Origin: a virus
Lineage: Duplodnaviria; Heunggongvirae; Uroviricota; Caudoviricetes
Length of the DNA: 26,841 bases
Reading direction: 5' to 3' (one strand)
Virus record (IMG/VR): IMGVR_UViG_2802429248_000008
Coordinates: 1 to 26,841 of that record
Under the pieces are notes generated by a model. That model was not told the DNA's origin. It searched no databases and saw only the letters and a list, made by a program, of their open reading frames with translations. Shown here one piece after another: positions 2,497 through 20,114 of this stretch (position 1 is its first letter; every line of letters starts with the position of its first letter). The position numbers and the translations under genes are program-made.

Positions 2497-2550
2497 AGTG
2501 TTCCTATAAGTACACTAAGCTTGCGCACAAGGTGTACTTATAAGTACACC
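2497..2550. promoter_or_regulatory. Immunity-switch operator: 20-bp perfect palindrome plus a degenerate upstream copy
   Basis: ggtgtacttataagtacacc at 2531-2550 is its own reverse complement. agtgttcctataagtacact at 2497-2516 matches it at 16 of 20 positions, centre-to-centre about 34 bp. A TTGACA hexamer sits at 2492-2497. Located between the divergent C and cox-like starts. Confidence 0.6.
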
Positions 2551-6972: not shown

Positions 6973-7086
6973 GTAATCATCATGCACACACAAAAAAACC
7001 GCTTGCCATGCCGCAATCAGTCAGGTTACATTTCCGCTGCACCTCATAAAACGGGTGCCGGGATTCTCAACCTGCTGACAAACGAA

Positions 7087-7118
7087 GCGCACAACCGCGC
7101 CAGCGGTTTTTTTGTGCG
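7087..7118 (+). terminator. Terminator-like hairpin with a 7-T run
   Basis: Inner stem ccgc/gcgg (7095-7106) followed by TTTTTTT (7107-7113); outer arms cgcacaa/ttgtgcg (7088-7094 and 7112-7118). About 115 bp past the 6412-6972 gene. Confidence 0.45.
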
Positions 7119-7168
7119 TACTGTATTGCCACGTCTTTTTCGCATCAGAATTATGGTGGGGCGTACGG

Positions 7169-7200
7169 GGCCGACTTCGGTCGGGCCGGTTTCTTCGTTT
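7169..7200 (+). terminator. Second terminator-like hairpin with UUCG loop and U-rich tail
   Basis: ggccgac-ttcg-gtcgggcc at 7169-7187, then ggtttcttcgttt. Preceded by TTGCCA (7126-7131), a 17-nt spacer and AATTAT (7149-7154), a plausible promoter. Confidence 0.45.
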
Positions 7201-7295
7201 GCCGGTGTTGAGAACCCCGTACGTCTCGCCACCCCGAGATTCTCAACTCTGGTTGGTGAGTATCCAAAAACTCACAAACGAAGAGGCCAAACACC

Positions 7296-7970: not shown

Positions 7971-10793
7971 ATGACGACAGAGTACATCAGGGACTGGCAA
8001 CAACCGCGCCACGCAGTAGGGCGTGAAGGAACGGGGATCCCCGCACCTGAATCCGCGCTTTCCTCCTGGCTGGATGCCTACCGGGCAGAGAACGAGCGCC
8101 GCCAGGAAAAGGCTGATGCGGTGTTCTCCGCCACGCCACTGGGCAACCTGATTAATAAAAGCCTGGACGCACAGGAAAAACAGGACAAAACCATCACTCT
8201 GGCAGGAGAAGCCAGAAGACAGGCACGCGGCGCGGTGGATGAAGCCATGGCCTCGCTGCGCCTGCTGCCGTCCTATCTGCGCGATCCGCTTATTCGCCAC
8301 CTCTCCTTCCTGCGCAAAAAACAGGAAGCCGATCGCCGGAAAGGCAAAAAGAGCTGGCAGGCAGAACGCTATGCACGCGGAACCCTGCGCAAGATATTCG
8401 ATCGCATTAACCGTGCCGACAGTCGCTGGCTGACACCGGGTTATCGCTCCCTTGCCGGACGCGAACGCCTGGACGATTTGCTTTACCTGCCGCAGCTCAA
8501 CAAACACCAGATACAGACGCTGGCCACCATGACGGCGGCGATGTTCAGCAGCACCTTCGAAAAACTCTGCGATGGCTTTGGCGCGACTGATGGTGAGCTG
8601 ACCATGGAGGTGGCACTGAAGGCGTATCAGATGCTGGCCCGCATGGCGTTACACCTGCACACCGTGCCGCCGCATTACGAAGCGCTGACAACAGACAAAG
8701 ACCGGAGGAACGAACCGGACACGGAGCTGCTGCCGGGCGCAATCCTTCGTCTGACCTGTGCGGAATGGTGGAAACGCAAACTGTGGCTGTTACGTTGCGA
8801 GTGGCGGGAAGAACAACTCCGTGCCGCCTGTCTGGTTTCCAGAAAAACATCGCCCTATCTGAGCCAGGACGCGTTAAGCGAGTTTCGCGCACAGCGCGAG
8901 AAAACACGCGATTTTCTGAAAAGTTTCATGCTGGAAAACGAAGACGGGTTCACGATTGATCTCGAGACAGTGTATTACGCGGGAGTAAGTAACCCGGTTC
9001 ACCGTAAGGCAGAAATGATGGCCACCATGAAGGGGCTGGAACTTCTGGCCGAAGCCCGTGGCGACAAAGCGGTGTTTCTGACTGTCACCTGCCCGTCAAA
9101 ATACCACGCCACAACAGAGAACGGTCATCCGAACCCCAGATGGAACGGGGCCACCATGCGCGACTCCAGCGATTACCTAGTTAACACGTTTTTTGCGGCG
9201 GTCCGCAAAAAACTGAACCGCGACGGTCTTCGCTGGTATGGCATCCGCACGGTGGAGCCTCACCATGACGGCACTGTGCACTGGCATATGATGGTCTTTG
9301 CACATCCGGAAGAAATCGACAGCATCGTGGCCATCACCCGCGATATTGCCATTCAGGAAGACCGCCACGAGCTGGGCAATGATATTACTCCGCGCTTTAA
9401 GGTGGAGTATGTCGACGGCTCAAAAGGCACACCGACCAGCTATATCGCCACCTACATCGGAAAAAACCTGGACAGCCGCGCCGTGGATGGCATCGACCCG
9501 AAAACGGGCAAGCCACGCGTTGACCACGAAACCGGAAAATCAATGGCCGAGAGCGTGGAGCGCGCCATCGGCTGGGCGCGCCTTCACCGCGTCCGCCAGT
9601 TCCAGTTCTTTGGCATCCCCTCCCGTCAGGTGTGGCGTGAACTGCGCCGCCTTGCCAGCCAGATGGCACGCAACCCGGAAGGCCCGCAACGGCTGAAGGA
9701 TGACGCAATGGATGCGGTACTCGCTGCCGCTGATGCCGGGTGTTTTGCCTCCTACATTGAAAAACAGGGTGGCGTACTTGTTCCACGCAAGGACTACCTG
9801 ATTCGCACCGCCTACGACCTCGCAGATGAGCTGAACGATTACGGCGAACAGGGCGTACAGATTTACGGGATCTGGTCACCACTCATCGGGGAATCCTCCC
9901 GTGTGTGCACGCACCCGGATAACTGGAAGCTGGTAAGACGTAAACCGGAACAGGAAGGTAGCGCCCACGAAAATGGTTTTGACCTTCAGGGCGGCCCTGC
10001 CGCCCCTTGGACCCGTGGCAATAACTGTCCCCGTGTACAGGAAACGGACAACAACGGGACAGAACAGCCGGAAGAACGGCCAGCACCGTGGCCGCAGCTT
10101 CCTGACGGCATTGAAGTGAACGAATGGATGCGCTCACTGAAACGGCACGAACGCCGGGCGCTGATGCGTTCGCTTCGTGACAAACAGGCAAAAAACAGCA
10201 GTGATGAAATGCAGAGCTGGACACAGAGCCGCAAACAGCAGCGGCCTTTGCCTGATAACCACGAATTACTCGCTAGAGAATGGCGGGAGTCTGCTGAATC
10301 TCTCGGCCTGCATATCGGTGAACAACAAATGCAGCACCTGTTACGGGGCGGCAGTCTGTACGTTGACGGCAGCATCATTGCACCGCAGGGATTTGAAATT
10401 GTACGCAAACCGGATACCCGCCCGGACAGCCGAATCACGCAGCTCTGGCAGCGCCTGAGCCGTAATCACGGTGTAAGCAGCACGGAGATCCGCCATAACC
10501 CGGTCGCCAGCTATCTGGCACAGCTGGGGGCATCAGACCCTGAAGCCGCCGCACGCCTGGCATCCACACTTCAGCAGGACCAGAACACCATGAAAACACC
10601 CGTTACCGTGCTTTCTGACATGCTGCGCGCCATCCGCGACGCAGAGCACGCACAGAGAATCAGTGAAACCACTGAACGCGCCCACCGCAAAGCAGACCTG
10701 CTGCGGGGTGGCCTGACCAGTGGAAACAAAAAACAGACAGAAACGGGACTCACGAATCCCGTAAATGAGCAAAAAACGCGCAGCGATATATGA
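7971..10793 (+). CDS. A: Rolling-circle replication initiator (P2 gpA family, HUH endonuclease), 940 aa with a long C-terminal extension
   Basis: HUH motif HHDGTVHWHMMVFAH and paired active-site tyrosines in SYIATYIGKN, characteristic of P2 A/phiX174 gpA-type initiators. About 290 C-terminal residues are low-complexity and Gln/Arg/Glu-rich. Confidence 0.85.
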   Translation: MTTEYIRDWQQPRHAVGREGTGIPAPESALSSWLDAYRAENERRQEKADAVFSATPLGNLINKSLDAQEKQDKTITLAGEARRQARGAVDEAMASLRLLPSYLRDPLIRHLSFLRKKQEADRRKGKKSWQAERYARGTLRKIFDRINRADSRWLTPGYRSLAGRERLDDLLYLPQLNKHQIQTLATMTAAMFSSTFEKLCDGFGATDGELTMEVALKAYQMLARMALHLHTVPPHYEALTTDKDRRNEPDTELLPGAILRLTCAEWWKRKLWLLRCEWREEQLRAACLVSRKTSPYLSQDALSEFRAQREKTRDFLKSFMLENEDGFTIDLETVYYAGVSNPVHRKAEMMATMKGLELLAEARGDKAVFLTVTCPSKYHATTENGHPNPRWNGATMRDSSDYLVNTFFAAVRKKLNRDGLRWYGIRTVEPHHDGTVHWHMMVFAHPEEIDSIVAITRDIAIQEDRHELGNDITPRFKVEYVDGSKGTPTSYIATYIGKNLDSRAVDGIDPKTGKPRVDHETGKSMAESVERAIGWARLHRVRQFQFFGIPSRQVWRELRRLASQMARNPEGPQRLKDDAMDAVLAAADAGCFASYIEKQGGVLVPRKDYLIRTAYDLADELNDYGEQGVQIYGIWSPLIGESSRVCTHPDNWKLVRRKPEQEGSAHENGFDLQGGPAAPWTRGNNCPRVQETDNNGTEQPEERPAPWPQLPDGIEVNEWMRSLKRHERRALMRSLRDKQAKNSSDEMQSWTQSRKQQRPLPDNHELLAREWRESAESLGLHIGEQQMQHLLRGGSLYVDGSIIAPQGFEIVRKPDTRPDSRITQLWQRLSRNHGVSSTEIRHNPVASYLAQLGASDPEAAARLASTLQQDQNTMKTPVTVLSDMLRAIRDAEHAQRISETTERAHRKADLLRGGLTSGNKKQTETGLTNPVNEQKTRSDI

Positions 10794-10838
10794 AGCGCGC
10801 ACAAAACAGGCAAAAACGGGATTTCAGAATCCCGTAAA
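10741..10838. promoter_or_regulatory. Two 25-bp imperfect dyad repeats flanking the parM upstream region (candidate parC centromere/operator, or A-associated site)
   Basis: aaacgggactcacgaatcccgtaaa (10741-10765, inside the 3' end of A) and aaacgggatttcagaatcccgtaaa (10814-10838). Each has inverted acggga/tcccgt arms; the second forms a perfect 8-bp stem (acgggatt/aatcccgt). AT-rich stretch and RBS follow before parM. Confidence 0.5.
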
Positions 10839-13317: not shown

Positions 13318-13756
13318 TCCCCCTCAAACCAGGGCGATAATCGCGCATCGCCCTGCTGCACAATAGCGCACAAATTTGCACAATTTTTTTGAAAGACTTT
13401 TTACCCTTCCGGCCCGCATGGTGGCTGGATCCGTCAAGGATCCGTGCGTGCACAAAAAAACGCGTTTTTTCTGCGCGCAGGTGACGGGGGAACAGCCCGC
13501 GTTTCAGGGGGTAAATAGCATTCCCTGAACGATGTCGCAGAGATACAACAGAATGGCTGTATTTCTCACGCTGAGCGTGAAAAAGACGTGAGGGCTTTTG
13601 ATTTGATGGGGTGAAAGGTAAGGCCGTCAAAATCGCACTGAGACGGCGAGAACATGCAGCCAACGCGGTGGGATTGCGTAAGAGTCTGGCTGTCGATGAT
13701 GGCAATAAGCAGGAAAGCGTCGTGAAATTATCTGATTGATACAGGAGCTGGAGAGT

Positions 13757-13781
13757 CGGGGCATAAATTTTTTATGCCCCG
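13757..13781. other. Perfect 11-bp stem hairpin just past the portal gene stop
   Basis: cggggcataaa-ttt-tttatgccccg; no U-run on either strand, so not a canonical terminator. Confidence 0.5.
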
Positions 13782-13807: not shown

Positions 13808-14854
13808 TCAGGATGTGGGCTGGGTGTCCAGCAGTGCATAAGGGTTAAAGCGGATCACCTCTTCGCCAAGCCAGTCATTGATGTGCTTCATGGCCTCCAT
13901 GACGGGCATCAGCTCGTTAATTGCGTAAACCCGCGCGGCCTTCTCCACATCACCAAACGCACTTTTTTCGCCCGGCATCGCCCCCATCAGTTGCGGCGGA
14001 ACGCGGTGCGCAGCCAGCACATCATCACGGGATGCCGCCTTGACATTCATGAACTCATCCTTTGCGGTGATCTGCTGGAACGGCAAAATTTGCACCCCCT
14101 CTTTGCCCCCGTTGGGCGCATGAATGAGCACGTTTTTAAACGCACCACCACCACGTGCACCCTGTAACGTTTCTTTCAGGGAGTCCATGCTTTCGCGGTT
14201 TACCTGCGCTGCACCGATGTAGATGATGCACCCGGCGTGGGATCCGTTGTCGTAATACAGTTTTCTGAACATGTCCGCCGAATGAGACAGGCTGGCCGAG
14301 AGTAATGCGCCGAGATATTCCGGCATGCCGTAAATTTCCTGGTTAATGTCCGGATTCATCAGGTGGCACACTTTGCCAGGGCGAAACTGGAACGCGTCCT
14401 TGCCATCCTGCACATACCACCATGATTCAAGATCGCTTCCGCGTCGCATGTATTTCGCCAGTGCGTGCCGTAATTTAAGCGGTTCGCCGAGCATATTGCT
14501 TCGAAGCTCAAGGAATGCGTTACCGAACACAAACCAGTCCAGCGCCAGCGCCGAGAAATCCTGCCGGGAAAGCAGCGGGTGCGGAATATAGCAACCGAGC
14601 AATACATTGCGCTTAAAGTAAAGCGCAGACTGATGCCAGGACGTTTGCCGGGCAGCTCTTGCCAGACCGTACCAGTCCACCGGGGTTTCATACCACCGCC
14701 CGTTATCAGCACAGTACATATTGTCCAGCAGGTCATGCCCGGTCAGGCGATAAGGACCATCAAATGTGAATGCACTGAGCGATGATTCTTTCCTGAGCGC
14801 ATCAGCGAGATCAATGCGTGAACTCATGCGCACTTTTTTATTTTTTCTGCTCAT
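13808..14854 (-). CDS. Q: Portal protein (P2 gpQ family)
   Basis: 348 aa, translationally coupled to the terminase (ATGA overlap at 14854). Size and position match P2 Q; called from synteny and overall resemblance. Confidence 0.85.
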   Translation of the reverse strand: MSRKNKKVRMSSRIDLADALRKESSLSAFTFDGPYRLTGHDLLDNMYCADNGRWYETPVDWYGLARAARQTSWHQSALYFKRNVLLGCYIPHPLLSRQDFSALALDWFVFGNAFLELRSNMLGEPLKLRHALAKYMRRGSDLESWWYVQDGKDAFQFRPGKVCHLMNPDINQEIYGMPEYLGALLSASLSHSADMFRKLYYDNGSHAGCIIYIGAAQVNRESMDSLKETLQGARGGGAFKNVLIHAPNGGKEGVQILPFQQITAKDEFMNVKAASRDDVLAAHRVPPQLMGAMPGEKSAFGDVEKAARVYAINELMPVMEAMKHINDWLGEEVIRFNPYALLDTQPTS

Positions 14855-16605: not shown

Positions 16606-16759
16606 TGCTCCCCCTGAGTAATTACAGGAAGATTACCCGCGCGCGAAACCGTTCTCCTTAACCCCCTGTTCTGGCCGTTTTCTTACAACAAAAGCCCTTT
16701 GTATCAGCCTGTTACGCTTTGCCATCATGACTGAAGAACCAGTCAGAGGGGCAAAAACT
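16606..16759. promoter_or_regulatory. Divergent late-promoter region between P/Q (leftward) and O-N-M (rightward)
   Basis: Only inter-operon gap between the divergent packaging and head operons. Partial TGT...ACA dyads (tgttctggccgttttcttacaaca, 16667-16690) are present, but the canonical Ogr TGT-N12-ACA spacing was not found. Confidence 0.4.
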
Positions 16760-17596
16760 ATGGCTAATGAAAAAAAGACATCCCGCAAAAAGTTTCGCGT
16801 GGCTGTCTCCGGATCAACTGTTGATGGCCGCGAAATCAGTCCGGTACATCTGCGTGAAGCCGCCGAGAACTTCAACCCGGATGTTTACGCTGCCCGCGTG
16901 AACGTTGAGCACTATCTCTCGCCATGCCCGTCAAGCGAATTTTCCGCAATGGGCGATGTCACCGCGCTGAGTACGGAAGATATTACGGAAGGCCCGCTGG
17001 CCGGACGTACTGCGCTGTATGCAGAAATCGAACCGACCGAGCGCATGAAGCAGCTTGTCGCTGACGGCAAGAAAATCTATTCCAGTATCGAACTGCACCC
17101 GCAGTTCTCCGTTAACGGGCGCGCCTATCTGGTCGGGCTGGCGATGACCGACACCCCGGCAAGCCTGGGCACTGAGCGCCTGAAATTCACGGCACAGCAA
17201 CGTCAGGCGGTGATGACGTTCAACAGTGTCCAGGGTGAAGCACCGCTTATCTCCGAAGCCATCGAGTCTGAAATCATCGAAATGGCAGAACAACGCCAGG
17301 AAGAAGGCACACAGTGGTTTAACCGCGTAATGGGGATTATTGGCCGTGGCCGCAAAGCGGATGACGCCAGTTTCTCCCGCATTCAGGAAGCGGTGGAAGG
17401 CGTCGCAACGTCACAGGCCGACATTATCGACCGTTTTAATGCACTGGATACCCGCCATCAGCAGGACAGCCAGAAAATCACTTCACTGACCACAGAGCTG
17501 GCAGCACTGAAGGAAAAACTGCGCACGCAGGACGGCGATCCGCAGAACCGGTTCACCGCAACGGGCGCAGCCTCCGACCAGCTGGCTGACTTCTGA
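16760..17596 (+). CDS. O: Capsid scaffolding protein (P2 gpO family)
   Basis: ATG 16760 in frame with track ORF 16727..17596; 278 aa, N-terminal RKKFRVAVSGSTVDGREISPVHLREAAENFNP resembles the P2 O N-terminus as recalled. Confidence 0.8.
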   Translation: MANEKKTSRKKFRVAVSGSTVDGREISPVHLREAAENFNPDVYAARVNVEHYLSPCPSSEFSAMGDVTALSTEDITEGPLAGRTALYAEIEPTERMKQLVADGKKIYSSIELHPQFSVNGRAYLVGLAMTDTPASLGTERLKFTAQQRQAVMTFNSVQGEAPLISEAIESEIIEMAEQRQEEGTQWFNRVMGIIGRGRKADDASFSRIQEAVEGVATSQADIIDRFNALDTRHQQDSQKITSLTTELAALKEKLRTQDGDPQNRFTATGAASDQLADF

Positions 17597-17619: not shown

Positions 17620-18672
17620 ATGAATCTGGTGATGTCAGATATTACCCGCAACAAGCTGGGTTGCTATATGGCGCAGCAGGCGTCGCTTAACAATATCCCG
17701 GTTTCCGCACTGGTATCGCGATTTACCGTGGAACCCTCGGTACAGCAGCGTTTTGAAAACGCCTCAAAGGAAAGCACCGAATTTACAAAAAGAATTAACG
17801 TGATCGGCGTGACCGACCAGAAAGGCGAAAAAATCCTCCTGGATACCACCGGGCCGATTGCGCGCACGAATACCAGTTATGACGGCACAAAACGCCGTAA
17901 CCCGAATAACGTGGTTGATCTGAAAAAACGCAAATACCAGTGCGAACAGGTGAACTACGACACGTTTATTTCATATCCGCAGCTTGATGCCTGGGCGGCA
18001 CACCCTGATTTTCAGTCCCGCATCAGCGCACAGATTGCCCGACAGGTGGCACTTGACCGCATCATGATCGGTTTCAACGGCACGTCTCACGCGGATGAGT
18101 CTAACTTCAGCACCAACAAGTTGCTTCAGGACGTTAACGTGGGCTGGCTGGAGCACATCAGAACCGACGCCAGCGAACGCGTTATGAATGACGTGACGCT
18201 GACCTCCCGTAACATGGACAACACCGTGGCGCACGCGGGTAAGTATGCGAACGCTGATGCACTGGTACAGGACGCGCGCTCATCCCTGCTGGATGAATGG
18301 CACAAGGAAGCTGACGACCTCGTGGTGATTATGGGGCGCAACCTGTTTAACTCGCTGCGTCTGCCCGTGCTGAACAGCATCAGCGGCCAGAATCCCAATG
18401 CGGAATTACTCGCCGGGCAGCTCATTCTGTCATCGCGCACCATTGGCGGGCTGGGCGTGTTCCTTGCGCCGTTCTTCCCGGATTCAACGATGCTGATCAC
18501 CTCGTTCAACAACCTGTCGATTTACTGGCAGAAAGGTTCAATGCGTCGTCTGATGAAAGACGAACCGGAATACAACCGCATCGCCACCTACCAGTCCATC
18601 AATGACGCTTATGTCGTTGAAGACTATGGCAAGTGCGCGATGGTCACTGGCCTGAAGTTCGCCGACAGCTAA
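17620..18672 (+). CDS. N: Major capsid protein (P2 gpN family)
   Basis: 350 aa, AAGGAG RBS, between scaffold and small terminase; co-linear with P2 N in segments such as FTVEPSV, DxxGxxIxxxxTSYDG, YVVEDY. Confidence 0.9.
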   Translation: MNLVMSDITRNKLGCYMAQQASLNNIPVSALVSRFTVEPSVQQRFENASKESTEFTKRINVIGVTDQKGEKILLDTTGPIARTNTSYDGTKRRNPNNVVDLKKRKYQCEQVNYDTFISYPQLDAWAAHPDFQSRISAQIARQVALDRIMIGFNGTSHADESNFSTNKLLQDVNVGWLEHIRTDASERVMNDVTLTSRNMDNTVAHAGKYANADALVQDARSSLLDEWHKEADDLVVIMGRNLFNSLRLPVLNSISGQNPNAELLAGQLILSSRTIGGLGVFLAPFFPDSTMLITSFNNLSIYWQKGSMRRLMKDEPEYNRIATYQSINDAYVVEDYGKCAMVTGLKFADS

Positions 18673-18681
18673 TCAACTCAC

Positions 18682-18700
18682 GGCGGGCATCATGCCCGCC
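18682..18700 (+). other. GC-rich hairpin 10 nt after the major capsid stop
   Basis: ggcgggca-tca-tgcccgcc, perfect 8-bp stem with 3-nt loop, no U-run; candidate RNA-stability or attenuation element. Confidence 0.5.
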
Positions 18701-18717
18701 TGTAACGGAGAGAAAAA

Positions 18718-19518
18718 ATGATTACTCCTGCACAGCAACACTGGCAGAACGTGATGGCACAGCGCGCAGGCCGGGCGAATGAAGGCGTGGACCACGCCGC
18801 GCGTACCGCGCATGAAGAGGTGCTGTATCGTCTGCGTCTGGCACAGGCCCGGCTTAAGGGCGTACAGGCAAGAAGCGCGAAAGCCGCCATCAAAAAAGAG
18901 TTGTTGCCGGATTTTTCCGGCTGGATTGAGGGAACGCTGGAGGCTGACGGCGGGCAGCAGGACGAAGTGATTGCCACGCTGATGGTGTGGGCGATTGACT
19001 GCGGCGATCTTCCGCTTGCGCTGCGTATTGGTGCGTATGTGGTCCGTCACAACCTCATCATGCCGGATAACTTTGGCCGTACTGCTGCCACGGTACTGAC
19101 CGAAGAAATCTGCAACCCGGTATTGACGCAGGCCGGGACGGATGCCGACGCGGATTTGTCCACCTTTATCGAACCACTGGACACACTTTGGGAAATTGTC
19201 GCCAACCAGGATATGCCGGACGAAGTGCGCGCCAAATTATGCAAGGCGTGCGCATTTGCCCGCCGTGGCCTGAGCGATGCGGACAGCATGGCCTCATCAC
19301 TGAAGCTGCTGCGCGAAGCGATGCACCTGAACCCGAACGCAGGTGTGAAACGCGAGATTGCAACCCTTTCCCGCGCCCTGAAGAAAGCTGATTCCGCAGC
19401 CGCACCAGAAGATGCCAGCACACCGCAGACGCAGGACGAAAGCAGCAAAAGTAAAAAGACAACGCGGAAGCCTGCAACACGAAAAAACACCGCGACGCAG
19501 AAGGCGAAGCGCGGTTAA
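18718..19518 (+). CDS. M: Terminase small (endonuclease) subunit (P2 gpM family)
   Basis: 266 aa, GGAGAG RBS, position after N as in P2; basic Lys/Arg-rich C-terminal tail. Confidence 0.8.
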   Translation: MITPAQQHWQNVMAQRAGRANEGVDHAARTAHEEVLYRLRLAQARLKGVQARSAKAAIKKELLPDFSGWIEGTLEADGGQQDEVIATLMVWAIDCGDLPLALRIGAYVVRHNLIMPDNFGRTAATVLTEEICNPVLTQAGTDADADLSTFIEPLDTLWEIVANQDMPDEVRAKLCKACAFARRGLSDADSMASSLKLLREAMHLNPNAGVKREIATLSRALKKADSAAAPEDASTPQTQDESSKSKKTTRKPATRKNTATQKAKRG

Positions 19519-19533
19519 CGACTGACCCCGTCA

Positions 19534-19606
19534 GCGGGCGGCGTGCGCGGTGTTCCGGTTTGACTCCGTGACCGTTTACACCGCGCACCCACCGCCCGAT
19601 TTTTTC
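19534..19606 (+). terminator. Long imperfect hairpin plus T-run between M and L
   Basis: Arms gcgggcggcgtgcgcggtgt (19534-19553) and acaccgcgcacccaccgcccg (19578-19598), about 24-nt loop, then attttttc (19599-19606). Confidence 0.5.
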
Positions 19607-19619
19607 AGGAGTGAACCCC

Positions 19620-20114
19620 ATGAGTATGGTTGCCAGAACCAACCCCGGACCCGCAGAGGACGACATCACCGATACCGATGATGGTGATACCCGTATTTCA
19701 GCGGGCGCATTCTGGCCGGATATTGTGCTGCGTGAGCTGCGTCTGGCGATACGACTGTCGGGCCGTGTGACCACCTCCCGCCTGCTGCATACCGCCACCG
19801 GGGCCGTGGCACACGTTACCCGCGAGCTGGAAGCGTGGCAGCAGGAACAACAGGCGGCTGGCCATCAGACGCTGGCCGATGTTCCGGCACCCGTAATTAA
19901 CGGAGAAAGCGTCAATCTCTGGCACTGGCGCAATGCCGTTTATACCGCCACACGCGCCCTGATTCTGGAGCGTTACCGCGATGCGGACACAACGGATAAG
20001 GGCGACCGCCGCGCGGACGCACTGGATATACAGACATCGGATTTGTGGCGCGATGTGAGCTGGGCCATCTCTGACATTCTGCGCCGCCCGCGAATCTTTG
20101 CGGAGCTGTGCTGA
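19620..20114 (+). CDS. L: Head completion/stabilisation protein (P2 gpL family)
   Basis: ATG 19620 with AGGAG 9 nt upstream (track ORF starts at GTG 19611); 164 aa; stop overlaps the X start (TGATG). Confidence 0.8.
   Translation: MSMVARTNPGPAEDDITDTDDGDTRISAGAFWPDIVLRELRLAIRLSGRVTTSRLLHTATGAVAHVTRELEAWQQEQQAAGHQTLADVPAPVINGESVNLWHWRNAVYTATRALILERYRDADTTDKGDRRADALDIQTSDLWRDVSWAISDILRRPRIFAELC

Follow-up and report, generated by a model that had tools for sequence, protein, structure and literature searches.

A P2-family prophage of E. coli carries, in the short spacer between its major capsid gene N and its small terminase gene M, a GC-rich stem-loop that sequence comparison identifies as real, not a product of chance, and conserved in related phages; its pairing and position are kept and its sequence is not. 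The N-M hairpin most likely helps to keep the capsid message far more abundant than the message downstream of it, a familiar form of operon tuning. It is an element of an ordinary kind, and we infer its precise mechanism.

Accounts of the late operons of P2-family phages usually list four Ogr/B-activated transcription units and say little on how high-copy and low-copy proteins are dosed from one promoter. The capsid, sheath and tube proteins of these phages are needed in hundreds of copies, and the terminase and tail assembly factors in few.

The stem-loop between the capsid and small terminase genes

The window, by which we mean the whole stretch of DNA analysed (26,841 nt), is a P88-like (Xuanwuvirus) prophage that is 97-99% identical around its N-M junction to Escherichia phage P88 and other Xuanwuvirus records. 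Junctions of the window type were found in 1059 of 5426 complete E. coli genomes, O157:H7 and O104:H4 strains among them, with a median of one copy per genome carrying it. The features considered here are collected in Table 1. The gene names N and M, which the original prediction had assigned, are right by the Pfam matches of the two ORFs (Phage_cap_P2 and Phage_term_smal). Gene O opens the late O operon and would form the upstream part of the abundant O-N sub-transcript proposed below. On the same strand, M is followed by L, X, the lysis genes and the tail genes; the large terminase and portal genes are divergent, on the minus strand. The ORF list begins L at a GTG (19611), but its start is most likely the ATG at 19620, since AGGAG precedes that codon and P88 annotates the equivalent ATG. 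A scan of the N-M region for sigma-70-like promoters found none, and the P2 late-promoter dyad TGT-N12-ACA had no match in the N-M or M-L spacers; the same pattern also missed the region upstream of O, which makes its silence in the two spacers uninformative. Near the 3' end of N, 33 nt are 100% identical to an annotated CRISPR array of E. coli GmM066, and that stretch of the array is probably a spacer targeting the capsid gene.

Table 1. Coordinates of the features discussed, in the window and in related records.
Feature	Record	Position	Strand	Basis
Gene O, capsid scaffold/protease	window	16727..17596	+	Pfam PF05929 Phage_GPO, E = 6.5e-91
Gene N, P2-family major capsid protein	window	17620..18672	+	Pfam PF05125 Phage_cap_P2, E = 6.4e-119
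Segment of N identical to a CRISPR array	window	18613-18645
CRISPR array segment, E. coli GmM066	NZ_CM183652.1	4375635-4375667		annotation
N stop codon TAA	window	18670-18672	+	sequence, ORF list
N-M intercistronic spacer, 45 nt	window	18673..18717	+	sequence and ORF list
Stem-loop	window	18682..18700	+	sequence, folding, comparison with relatives
5' arm of stem	window	18682-18689	+
Loop	window	18690-18692	+
3' arm of stem	window	18693-18700	+
TAA in frame with N	window	18703-18705	+
M Shine-Dalgarno GGAGAG	window	18706..18711	+	read from sequence
Gene M, terminase small subunit	window	18718..19518	+	Pfam PF05944 Phage_term_smal, E = 1.1e-36
M-L spacer with second structured element	window	19519..19619	+	folding, covariation
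Long bipartite stem of M-L spacer	window	19538-19599	+
AGGAG upstream of L	window	19608-19612	+
Gene L	window	19611/19620-20114	+	Pfam Phage_GPL
AT-rich palindrome	window	2531-2550
isrK	window	7039-7113	+	Rfam, 62 bits
C4 antisense RNA	window	7149-7236	+	Rfam, 79 bits
P1/P7-type C4 immunity RNA module	window	7039-7236	+
Replication gene	window	7971-10793
Hairpin within replication gene	window	9188-9213
Hairpin just past replication gene	window	10816-10835
Perfect hairpin	window	13330-13355
11-bp palindromic hairpin	window	13757-13781
Portal gene	window	13808-14854	-
FII-E spacer, P88, 54 nt	L167	31425-31478	-
FII-E hairpin junction, P2	L411	15065-15120	-
FII-E hairpin junction, 186	L492	15899-15959
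M-L element, P2	L081	3322-3423
M-L element, 186	L082	3323-3414
N-M junction with hairpin deleted, Erwinia psidii prophage	L092	2554-2583
Small-terminase region, Klebsiella phage ST16-OXA48phi5.4	L494	17673-18566		RefSeq
Relocated small-terminase arrangement, phiE094	L495	6330-6411 and 101-790
N-L spacer, Vibrio phage 1F53_PE003	L410	3539-3659

The stem joins GGCGGGCA to TGCCCGCC across a TCA loop by eight perfect Watson-Crick pairs, seven G-C and one A-U, the last closing the 3-nt loop. The perfect 8-bp GC hairpin predicted after the capsid gene is thereby confirmed, "GC" being slightly generous. Nine nucleotides (TCAACTCAC) separate the N stop from the stem and 17 (TGTAACGGAGAGAAAAA) separate the stem from the M start codon; the predicted distances of 10 and 18 nt are the same ones counted inclusively. 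The Shine-Dalgarno (SD) sequence of M lies 5 nt past the stem and 6 nt ahead of the ATG. RNAfold placed the 8-bp stem in both the minimum free energy and the centroid structure, with a dG of -15.3 kcal/mol for the hairpin alone, and its 71-nt context gave z = -2.66, a fold equalled by 2 of 200 shuffles. The ORF list holds no in-frame M start upstream of 18718, and the hairpin is therefore non-coding in the window phage. Nothing in Rfam overlaps the N-M spacer, whether the gathering score or a limit of E = 10 is applied. In Klebsiella phage ST16-OXA48phi5.4, the RefSeq small-terminase CDS begins further upstream and includes the hairpin; this annotated start is probably too early, since no SD precedes its ATG and a strong AGGAG stands before the conserved M(L/I)TPAQ start 36 nt further on.

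Within the window taken alone, the hairpin is weak evidence, because perfect GC-rich stems of at least 8 bp arose 0.39 times per dinucleotide shuffle of the 26.8 kb, with one or more in 27% of shuffles. Chance becomes untenable because the hairpin sits in a 45-nt spacer and, above all, because of the comparative data.

Pairing and position are conserved among relatives

We compared 80 species-level GTDB prophage loci, collected by capsid alignment, with six reference phages and about 240 further IMG/VR loci. Among the close relatives (79 IMG/VR loci with capsids 97-100% identical), the stem is unchanged save for one terminal G-to-A and the flanking bases vary; the entire stem-loop is identical to that of the window in 76, an identity that is uninformative by itself at this distance.

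More distant loci fall into two groups by the length of the N-M gap. In P2, 186, most Pseudomonas, Halomonas, Burkholderia-type and other relatives, the gap is at most 12 nt and holds no hairpin. In an Enterobacterales clade with capsids at least 48% identical to that of the window, which includes Xuanwuvirus, Senquatrovirus and Reipivirus, the spacer measures 39-66 nt. An uninterrupted GC stem with a dG of -10 or lower was present in 27 of the 33 species-level loci having a spacer of at least 30 nt, and four more carried bulged hairpins (dG -13.7 to -26); the only two lacking a hairpin are AT-rich Photorhabdus prophages. Six lineages outside the clade, whose long N-M spacers are independent, also bear a hairpin there.

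The hairpins themselves are diverse. Over 404 loci we catalogued 65 distinct variants in several unrelated stem families, namely GGCGGG/CCCGCC, GGCCAGC/GCTGGCC, GTGCCGGA/TCCGGCAC, ACGGGCGCA/TGCGCCCGT and GCCGGGGGA/TCCCCGGC, and within a family the loop drifts freely (TTCG, TTAG, TTTG, TGCG, TTAA). The conserved stem is 6-11 bp long, with a dG of -10 to -23. At least one clean compensatory change is present, from C-G to U-A, distinguishing GGCGGGGG/CCCCCGCC in locus L358 from GGTGGGGG/CCCCCACC in L359. Single-site stem variants, counted as a test of which strand is under selection, comprised six changes of the G-U type versus four of the A-C type, too even a split to point to either strand. Alignment of 12 N-M spacers with MAFFT, followed by RNAalifold, gave no structure, loop-length differences having misaligned the stems; we therefore relied on cataloguing the hairpins and on folding each sequence against its own shuffles. 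By this measure, 16 of 21 distinct species-level spacers folded better than 95% of their dinucleotide shuffles (median z -2.5). Position is conserved as well: the N stop and the hairpin are 4-29 nt apart (mean 10.2, sd 4.4), and the hairpin and the M start 11-20 nt (mean 16.3, sd 2.5), which is the tighter of the two distances.

In an Erwinia psidii prophage (L092), the hairpin has been cleanly deleted between two GGGG runs, leaving a 24-nt spacer with an intact SD, while its close relatives L103, L105 and L112 retain it; the hairpin is therefore dispensable, at least for carriage as a prophage.

Two IMG/VR sequences (L040 and L070) end within the hairpin loop (...GGCGGGCATCA) despite longer contigs, possibly through a break in the stored data or an assembly break at the palindrome. 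The small-terminase gene of phiE094 lies elsewhere in the genome rather than between N and L. In Vibrio phage 1F53_PE003, N is followed directly by L, across a 121-nt spacer with a long hairpin.

A comparable hairpin follows the tail tube gene

A scan of the intergenic regions of P88 revealed a further U-poor GC hairpin, AGGCGGCGC/AGT/GCGTCGCCT, in the spacer between the tail tube gene FII and gene E, a junction that falls beyond the window. A G-U pair makes it more stable as the sense strand (dG -15.1) than as the antisense strand (-10.6), and such a pair favouring the sense strand is found in the FII hairpins of both P88 and Klebsiella phage phi5.4. Positional equivalents of unrelated sequence occur in P2, 186, Klebsiella phi5.4, phiE094 and Smp131; SEN4 has none. 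This comparison was made on whole phage records, as a tail-tube alignment scan of viral contigs gave only relatives that are 97-100% identical.

The curated record of phage 186 annotates its tail-tube hairpin as "tI; partial terminator of pJ transcript". The tI element, the P2 FII hairpin and the window hairpin are alike in form: the stem is GC-rich and 8-12 bp long, the loop has 3 nt and the U-tail is poor. Phage 186 belongs to the same virus family, with the same operon logic, and tI likewise stands directly past a gene for a very abundant structural protein and before low-copy genes. It differs in that its junction is that of the tail tube (gene I, the homologue of P2 FII) with E and not of capsid with small terminase, in its unrelated sequence and in a slightly better U-tail (UAUUA); its activity is known here from the annotation. 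Between the capsid and small-terminase genes of 186, in contrast to the window, there is no hairpin. U-poor hairpins thus appear to be placed where the demand for protein falls from hundreds of copies to few, past the tube gene and, in one clade, also past the capsid gene. The FII parallel is the strongest contextual support for the idea of uncoupling at the RNA level, and tI is the closest known relative of the N-M hairpin.

A proposed barrier to exonucleases at the end of the O-N message

Capsid protein N is needed in far more copies than the small terminase M. Stable stems are known to stall PNPase and RNase II during mRNA decay in E. coli, and in operons such as malEFG, pap and puf the segments differ in stability because of hairpins between the cistrons. 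The reading that we prefer, and to which we would give an even chance, is that the N-M hairpin defines the 3' end of an O-N sub-transcript, mainly as a barrier to 3'-to-5' exonucleases and possibly with minor leaky termination. On this view it would work in cis, as a stem-loop within the polycistronic late RNA (O-N-M-L and onward), and would mark the 3' end of the abundant O-N part. Transcription from the late promoter upstream of O would run through the N-M spacer; endonucleolytic cleavage and then 3'-to-5' exonucleases would clear the RNA downstream of the hairpin; and the U-less GC stem would halt the exonucleases, such that the O-N mRNA outlives M and the later segments. Where a lineage has a few U residues past its stem, some weak intrinsic termination could contribute as well. 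Expression would then step down between N, required in hundreds of copies per virion, and M, for which the need is catalytic. RNA 3' ends at the stem, a difference in stability and an effect on protein ratios would be the expected signs.

Similar elements are known from bacterial operons. The hairpins of malE-malF (REP), papB-papA and Rhodobacter pufBA-LMX block 3'-to-5' exonucleases, and as a result the upstream segment accumulates; this stabilisation has been demonstrated. Like the window hairpin, these are stable stem-loops without a U-run just downstream of the higher-expressed cistron. For the window hairpin, in contrast, stabilisation is what its form suggests, and REP elements further differ in being multi-copy genomic repeats of about 35 nt with a consensus of their own, whereas the window hairpin is a 19-nt, single-copy element of one phage junction. 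A barrier to decay requires no U-tract, and the window has a stable stem-loop just 3' of the more highly expressed cistron, with pairing that is conserved while sequence and loop drift. An RNA-level element at the N-M boundary fits because structure is conserved without sequence, because the U-tail is not conserved and because an equivalent hairpin follows the tail tube gene.

Against a decay barrier, the only annotated precedent in the family, tI, is described as a partial terminator and not as a stabiliser; P2 and 186 manage without any N-M hairpin; the Erwinia psidii prophage has lost it; and the lower variation in the gap between hairpin and M start might instead reflect a function at the ribosome-binding site of M. 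Our literature search turned up nothing published on the N-M hairpin, on the transcript ends of P88-, SEN4- or Reipivirus-type phages or on experiments with 186 tI. The original prediction held that the structure acts as an RNA processing or stability determinant uncoupling capsid expression from the downstream genes. Its direction, with M and the genes beyond it below N, is supported, while the specific mechanism that it named is one we can only infer. A decay barrier, a leaky terminator and a translational effect all predict less M than N.

The stem is conserved and the U-tail is not

The hairpin might instead be a leaky intrinsic terminator of the 186 tI type, at which some polymerases stop, giving a short O-N transcript and reduced read-through to M and beyond. 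Placement and the form of stem and loop match this type, and the 186 hairpin is annotated as a partial terminator. By a d'Aubenton-Carafa-style tail score, the window hairpin reaches 1.39, tI 1.84, the P2 FII hairpin 1.73 and the full terminator tW of 186 3.88, and TTT or TTTT follows the N-M hairpins of SEN4, L097, L126 and L135. Yet the window tail is weaker, and several members of the clade have no U at all. The sequence 3' of the window stem, UGUAACGG, contains two non-adjacent U residues only, and the terminator scan does not call the hairpin, in agreement with the predicted absence of a U-run. Clade-wide, mostly 0-3 T residues occur in the 8 nt past the stem, and tail scores among relatives range from 0.02 to 1.97; in the Klebsiella Reipivirus type (0.02) and the L103 type (0.54), the SD begins right after the stem. 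A "terminated" band of the Northern type, moreover, would look the same for termination and for processing followed by protection. We consider leaky termination as the main function rather unlikely, and weak termination possible in the lineages with TTT or TTTT tails.

A canonical Rho-independent terminator was also considered and rejected: the GC-rich stem-loop is present (8 bp with seven G-C pairs), but a U-tract of about five or more U in 8 nt is missing from the tail, and the hairpin does not end a transcription unit, M starting shortly downstream and being followed by late genes of the same strand.

A counterpart past a capsid gene is T-phi of phage T7, a leaky terminator after major capsid gene 10 that lets transcription pass partially into the downstream late genes. 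Like the window hairpin it is a stem-loop immediately past the major capsid gene, and it brings mRNA dosage into line with the stoichiometry of the proteins. It differs as a genuine terminator with a U-run that acts on T7 RNA polymerase in an unrelated phage, whereas the window hairpin lacks a U-run and its target would be the host polymerase or host RNases. Inefficient terminators are used by T7, and leaky terminators occur in phage operons generally (PMC9163698). In the N-M clade the stem is conserved and the U-tail is not, which suggests that selection sees the stem and not a terminator as a whole; the conserved mechanism is therefore more likely one that needs the hairpin only, be it a barrier to exonucleases or an effect on translation.

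Possible effects on translation and other readings

A translational effect is the other hairpin-only mechanism. The hairpin, 0-8 nt upstream of the M SD, could block re-initiation or scanning by ribosomes arriving from N and limit the standby site, so that M would be translated at a low rate and without dependence on N. In favour of this, the gap between hairpin and M start varies little from one unrelated stem family to another, M is required in far fewer copies than N, and in the hairpin-less P2 and 186 the two genes are 3-4 nt apart with the M SD inside N, an arrangement typical of coupling. However, compaction of the spacer alone would give the same distances, and FII hairpins do not all abut an SD. 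Partition-function folding also speaks against this reading, as the M SD was mostly paired with positions +7 to +10 of M whether the hairpin was present, mutated or deleted. The unpaired probability was 0.07-0.21 against 0.03-0.10 for the G residues, and the pairing hints, as far as modelling goes, at intrinsically weak translation of M; a role of the hairpin in freeing the M SD is unsupported by the same calculation. We regard a translational function as unlikely, and return to the exonuclease barrier as the preferred reading.

The hairpin could also have no function of its own, as a neutral palindrome, the remnant of a terminator from an old junction, a protein site at the DNA level or a REP-like mobile element. 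It is absent from P2, 186 and most Peduoviridae, deleted in L092 and missing from the two Photorhabdus prophages, and a single hairpin of this kind is, as the shuffles of the window indicate, not rare by chance. What makes this very unlikely is that different stems are kept at the same place in many lineages, with free loops and compensatory change, and that most distinct spacers fold better than their shuffles. The window holds one copy of the hairpin, and of 120 IMG/VR matches to its exact 19-mer, 118 sit at an N-M junction; because of this, and because E. coli genomes have a median of one such junction, it is not a dispersed repeat. A REP/BIME-type repeat was accordingly rejected, the element being single-copy and of one context. 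Nor is it a mosaic breakpoint, because similarity with Klebsiella phages runs straight across the junction.

A structure promoting stop read-through or frameshifting at the end of N has a negligible chance of being the explanation and was rejected on sequence grounds: although the stem begins 9 nt past the stop, a spacing known for some recoding stimulators, no slippery heptamer precedes the stop, a ribosome reading through it would meet an in-frame TAA after just 10 more codons, and among relatives the stop-to-hairpin spacing is variable (4-29 nt) and the stop codon either TAA or TGA.

A second structured element between M and L

The 101-nt M-L spacer, just upstream of the head-completion gene L, contains a small hairpin (CTGACCCCGTCAG), a long bipartite stem and then ATTTTTT. 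Its fold (dG -53.7, z = -4.9) was equalled by 0 of 200 shuffles. The architecture is common to most P2-like lineages sampled, including P2, 186, Halomonas, Pseudomonas, Burkholderiales and Mannheimia, and was located at about 200 loci besides those of P2 and 186, with one copy per genome. In a MAFFT alignment of 57 diverse spacers, RNAalifold found a 6-bp outer helix and a 7-bp inner helix with compensatory changes in 11 of 13 pairs. Paired cells amounted to 97.7%, compared with 38-54% when partners were slid, and the covariation score of 0.69, against about 0.1, was reached by 0 of 500 shuffles.

The outer helix reads RGGCGG/CCGCCY, the inner helix covaries fully and the apex is variable. Between them, a 1x3 internal loop, situated just ahead of the L SD, has invariant GGC on its 5' side and CACC on its 3' side. 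In 56 of the 57 sequences, the long stem has a 4-6 bp hairpin with a C-rich loop ahead of it. The element is absent in HP2, where M and L overlap, and in phiE094, where M is relocated; it is divergent in SW3 and Vibrio 1F53_PE003. Rfam gave no match at gathering score or at E up to 10, the curated 186 record has no annotation of it, and our literature search found no paper on it. It might be a site for processing of the RNase III type, an operator for L bound by a protein, or an attenuator/antiterminator.

The M-L element and the N-M hairpin bracket the small-terminase gene. A tentative and rather doubtful proposal is that the N-M hairpin is one half of an RNA bracket around M, the other half being the M-L element, an apparently undescribed structured RNA. 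If the M-L element were a specific processing or protein-binding site, the late O operon would be cut into O-N, M and L-onward segments that are dosed separately. M would then be a selectively unstable segment with the N-M hairpin as its upstream boundary, and the bracket would amount to an undescribed post-transcriptional layer of late gene control in the P2 family. The M-L element is potentially of greater interest than the N-M hairpin.

Other structured features of the window

A scan of the window for perfect hairpins of at least 8 bp gave 10 hits on six distinct hairpins, against 3.2 hits expected from shuffles. One is an 11-bp palindromic hairpin, CGGGGCATAAA TTT TTTATGCCCCG, just downstream of the portal gene; its P88 counterpart is flanked by a longer stem (dG -27 on the plus strand and -21 on the minus strand), and it looks like a bidirectional terminator ending the Q-P operon. 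Others are GTTTTTTGCGGCGGTCCGCAAAAAAC within the replication gene, ACGGGATTTCAGAATCCCGT just past it and CAGGGCGAT...ATCGCCCTG (13330-13355); an AT-rich palindrome, GGTGTACTTATAAGTACACC, lies near the integrase/repressor end. On the plus strand, C4 antisense RNA and isrK are the only Rfam matches above gathering score in the window, and together they form a P1/P7-type C4 immunity RNA module within this P2-family prophage.

Implications for late gene expression in P2-family phages

The N-M hairpin changes no concept, since leaky terminators and stabiliser hairpins past capsid genes are well known. Roughly a fifth of complete E. coli genomes carry this type of prophage, and the hairpin is a compact natural part that could serve for tuning expression in synthetic operons. 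For the family itself, U-poor GC hairpins at two boundaries between high-copy and low-copy genes (N|M and FII|E), with pairing that appears to be under selection, offer a testable answer to how proteins needed in very different amounts may be dosed from one late promoter.
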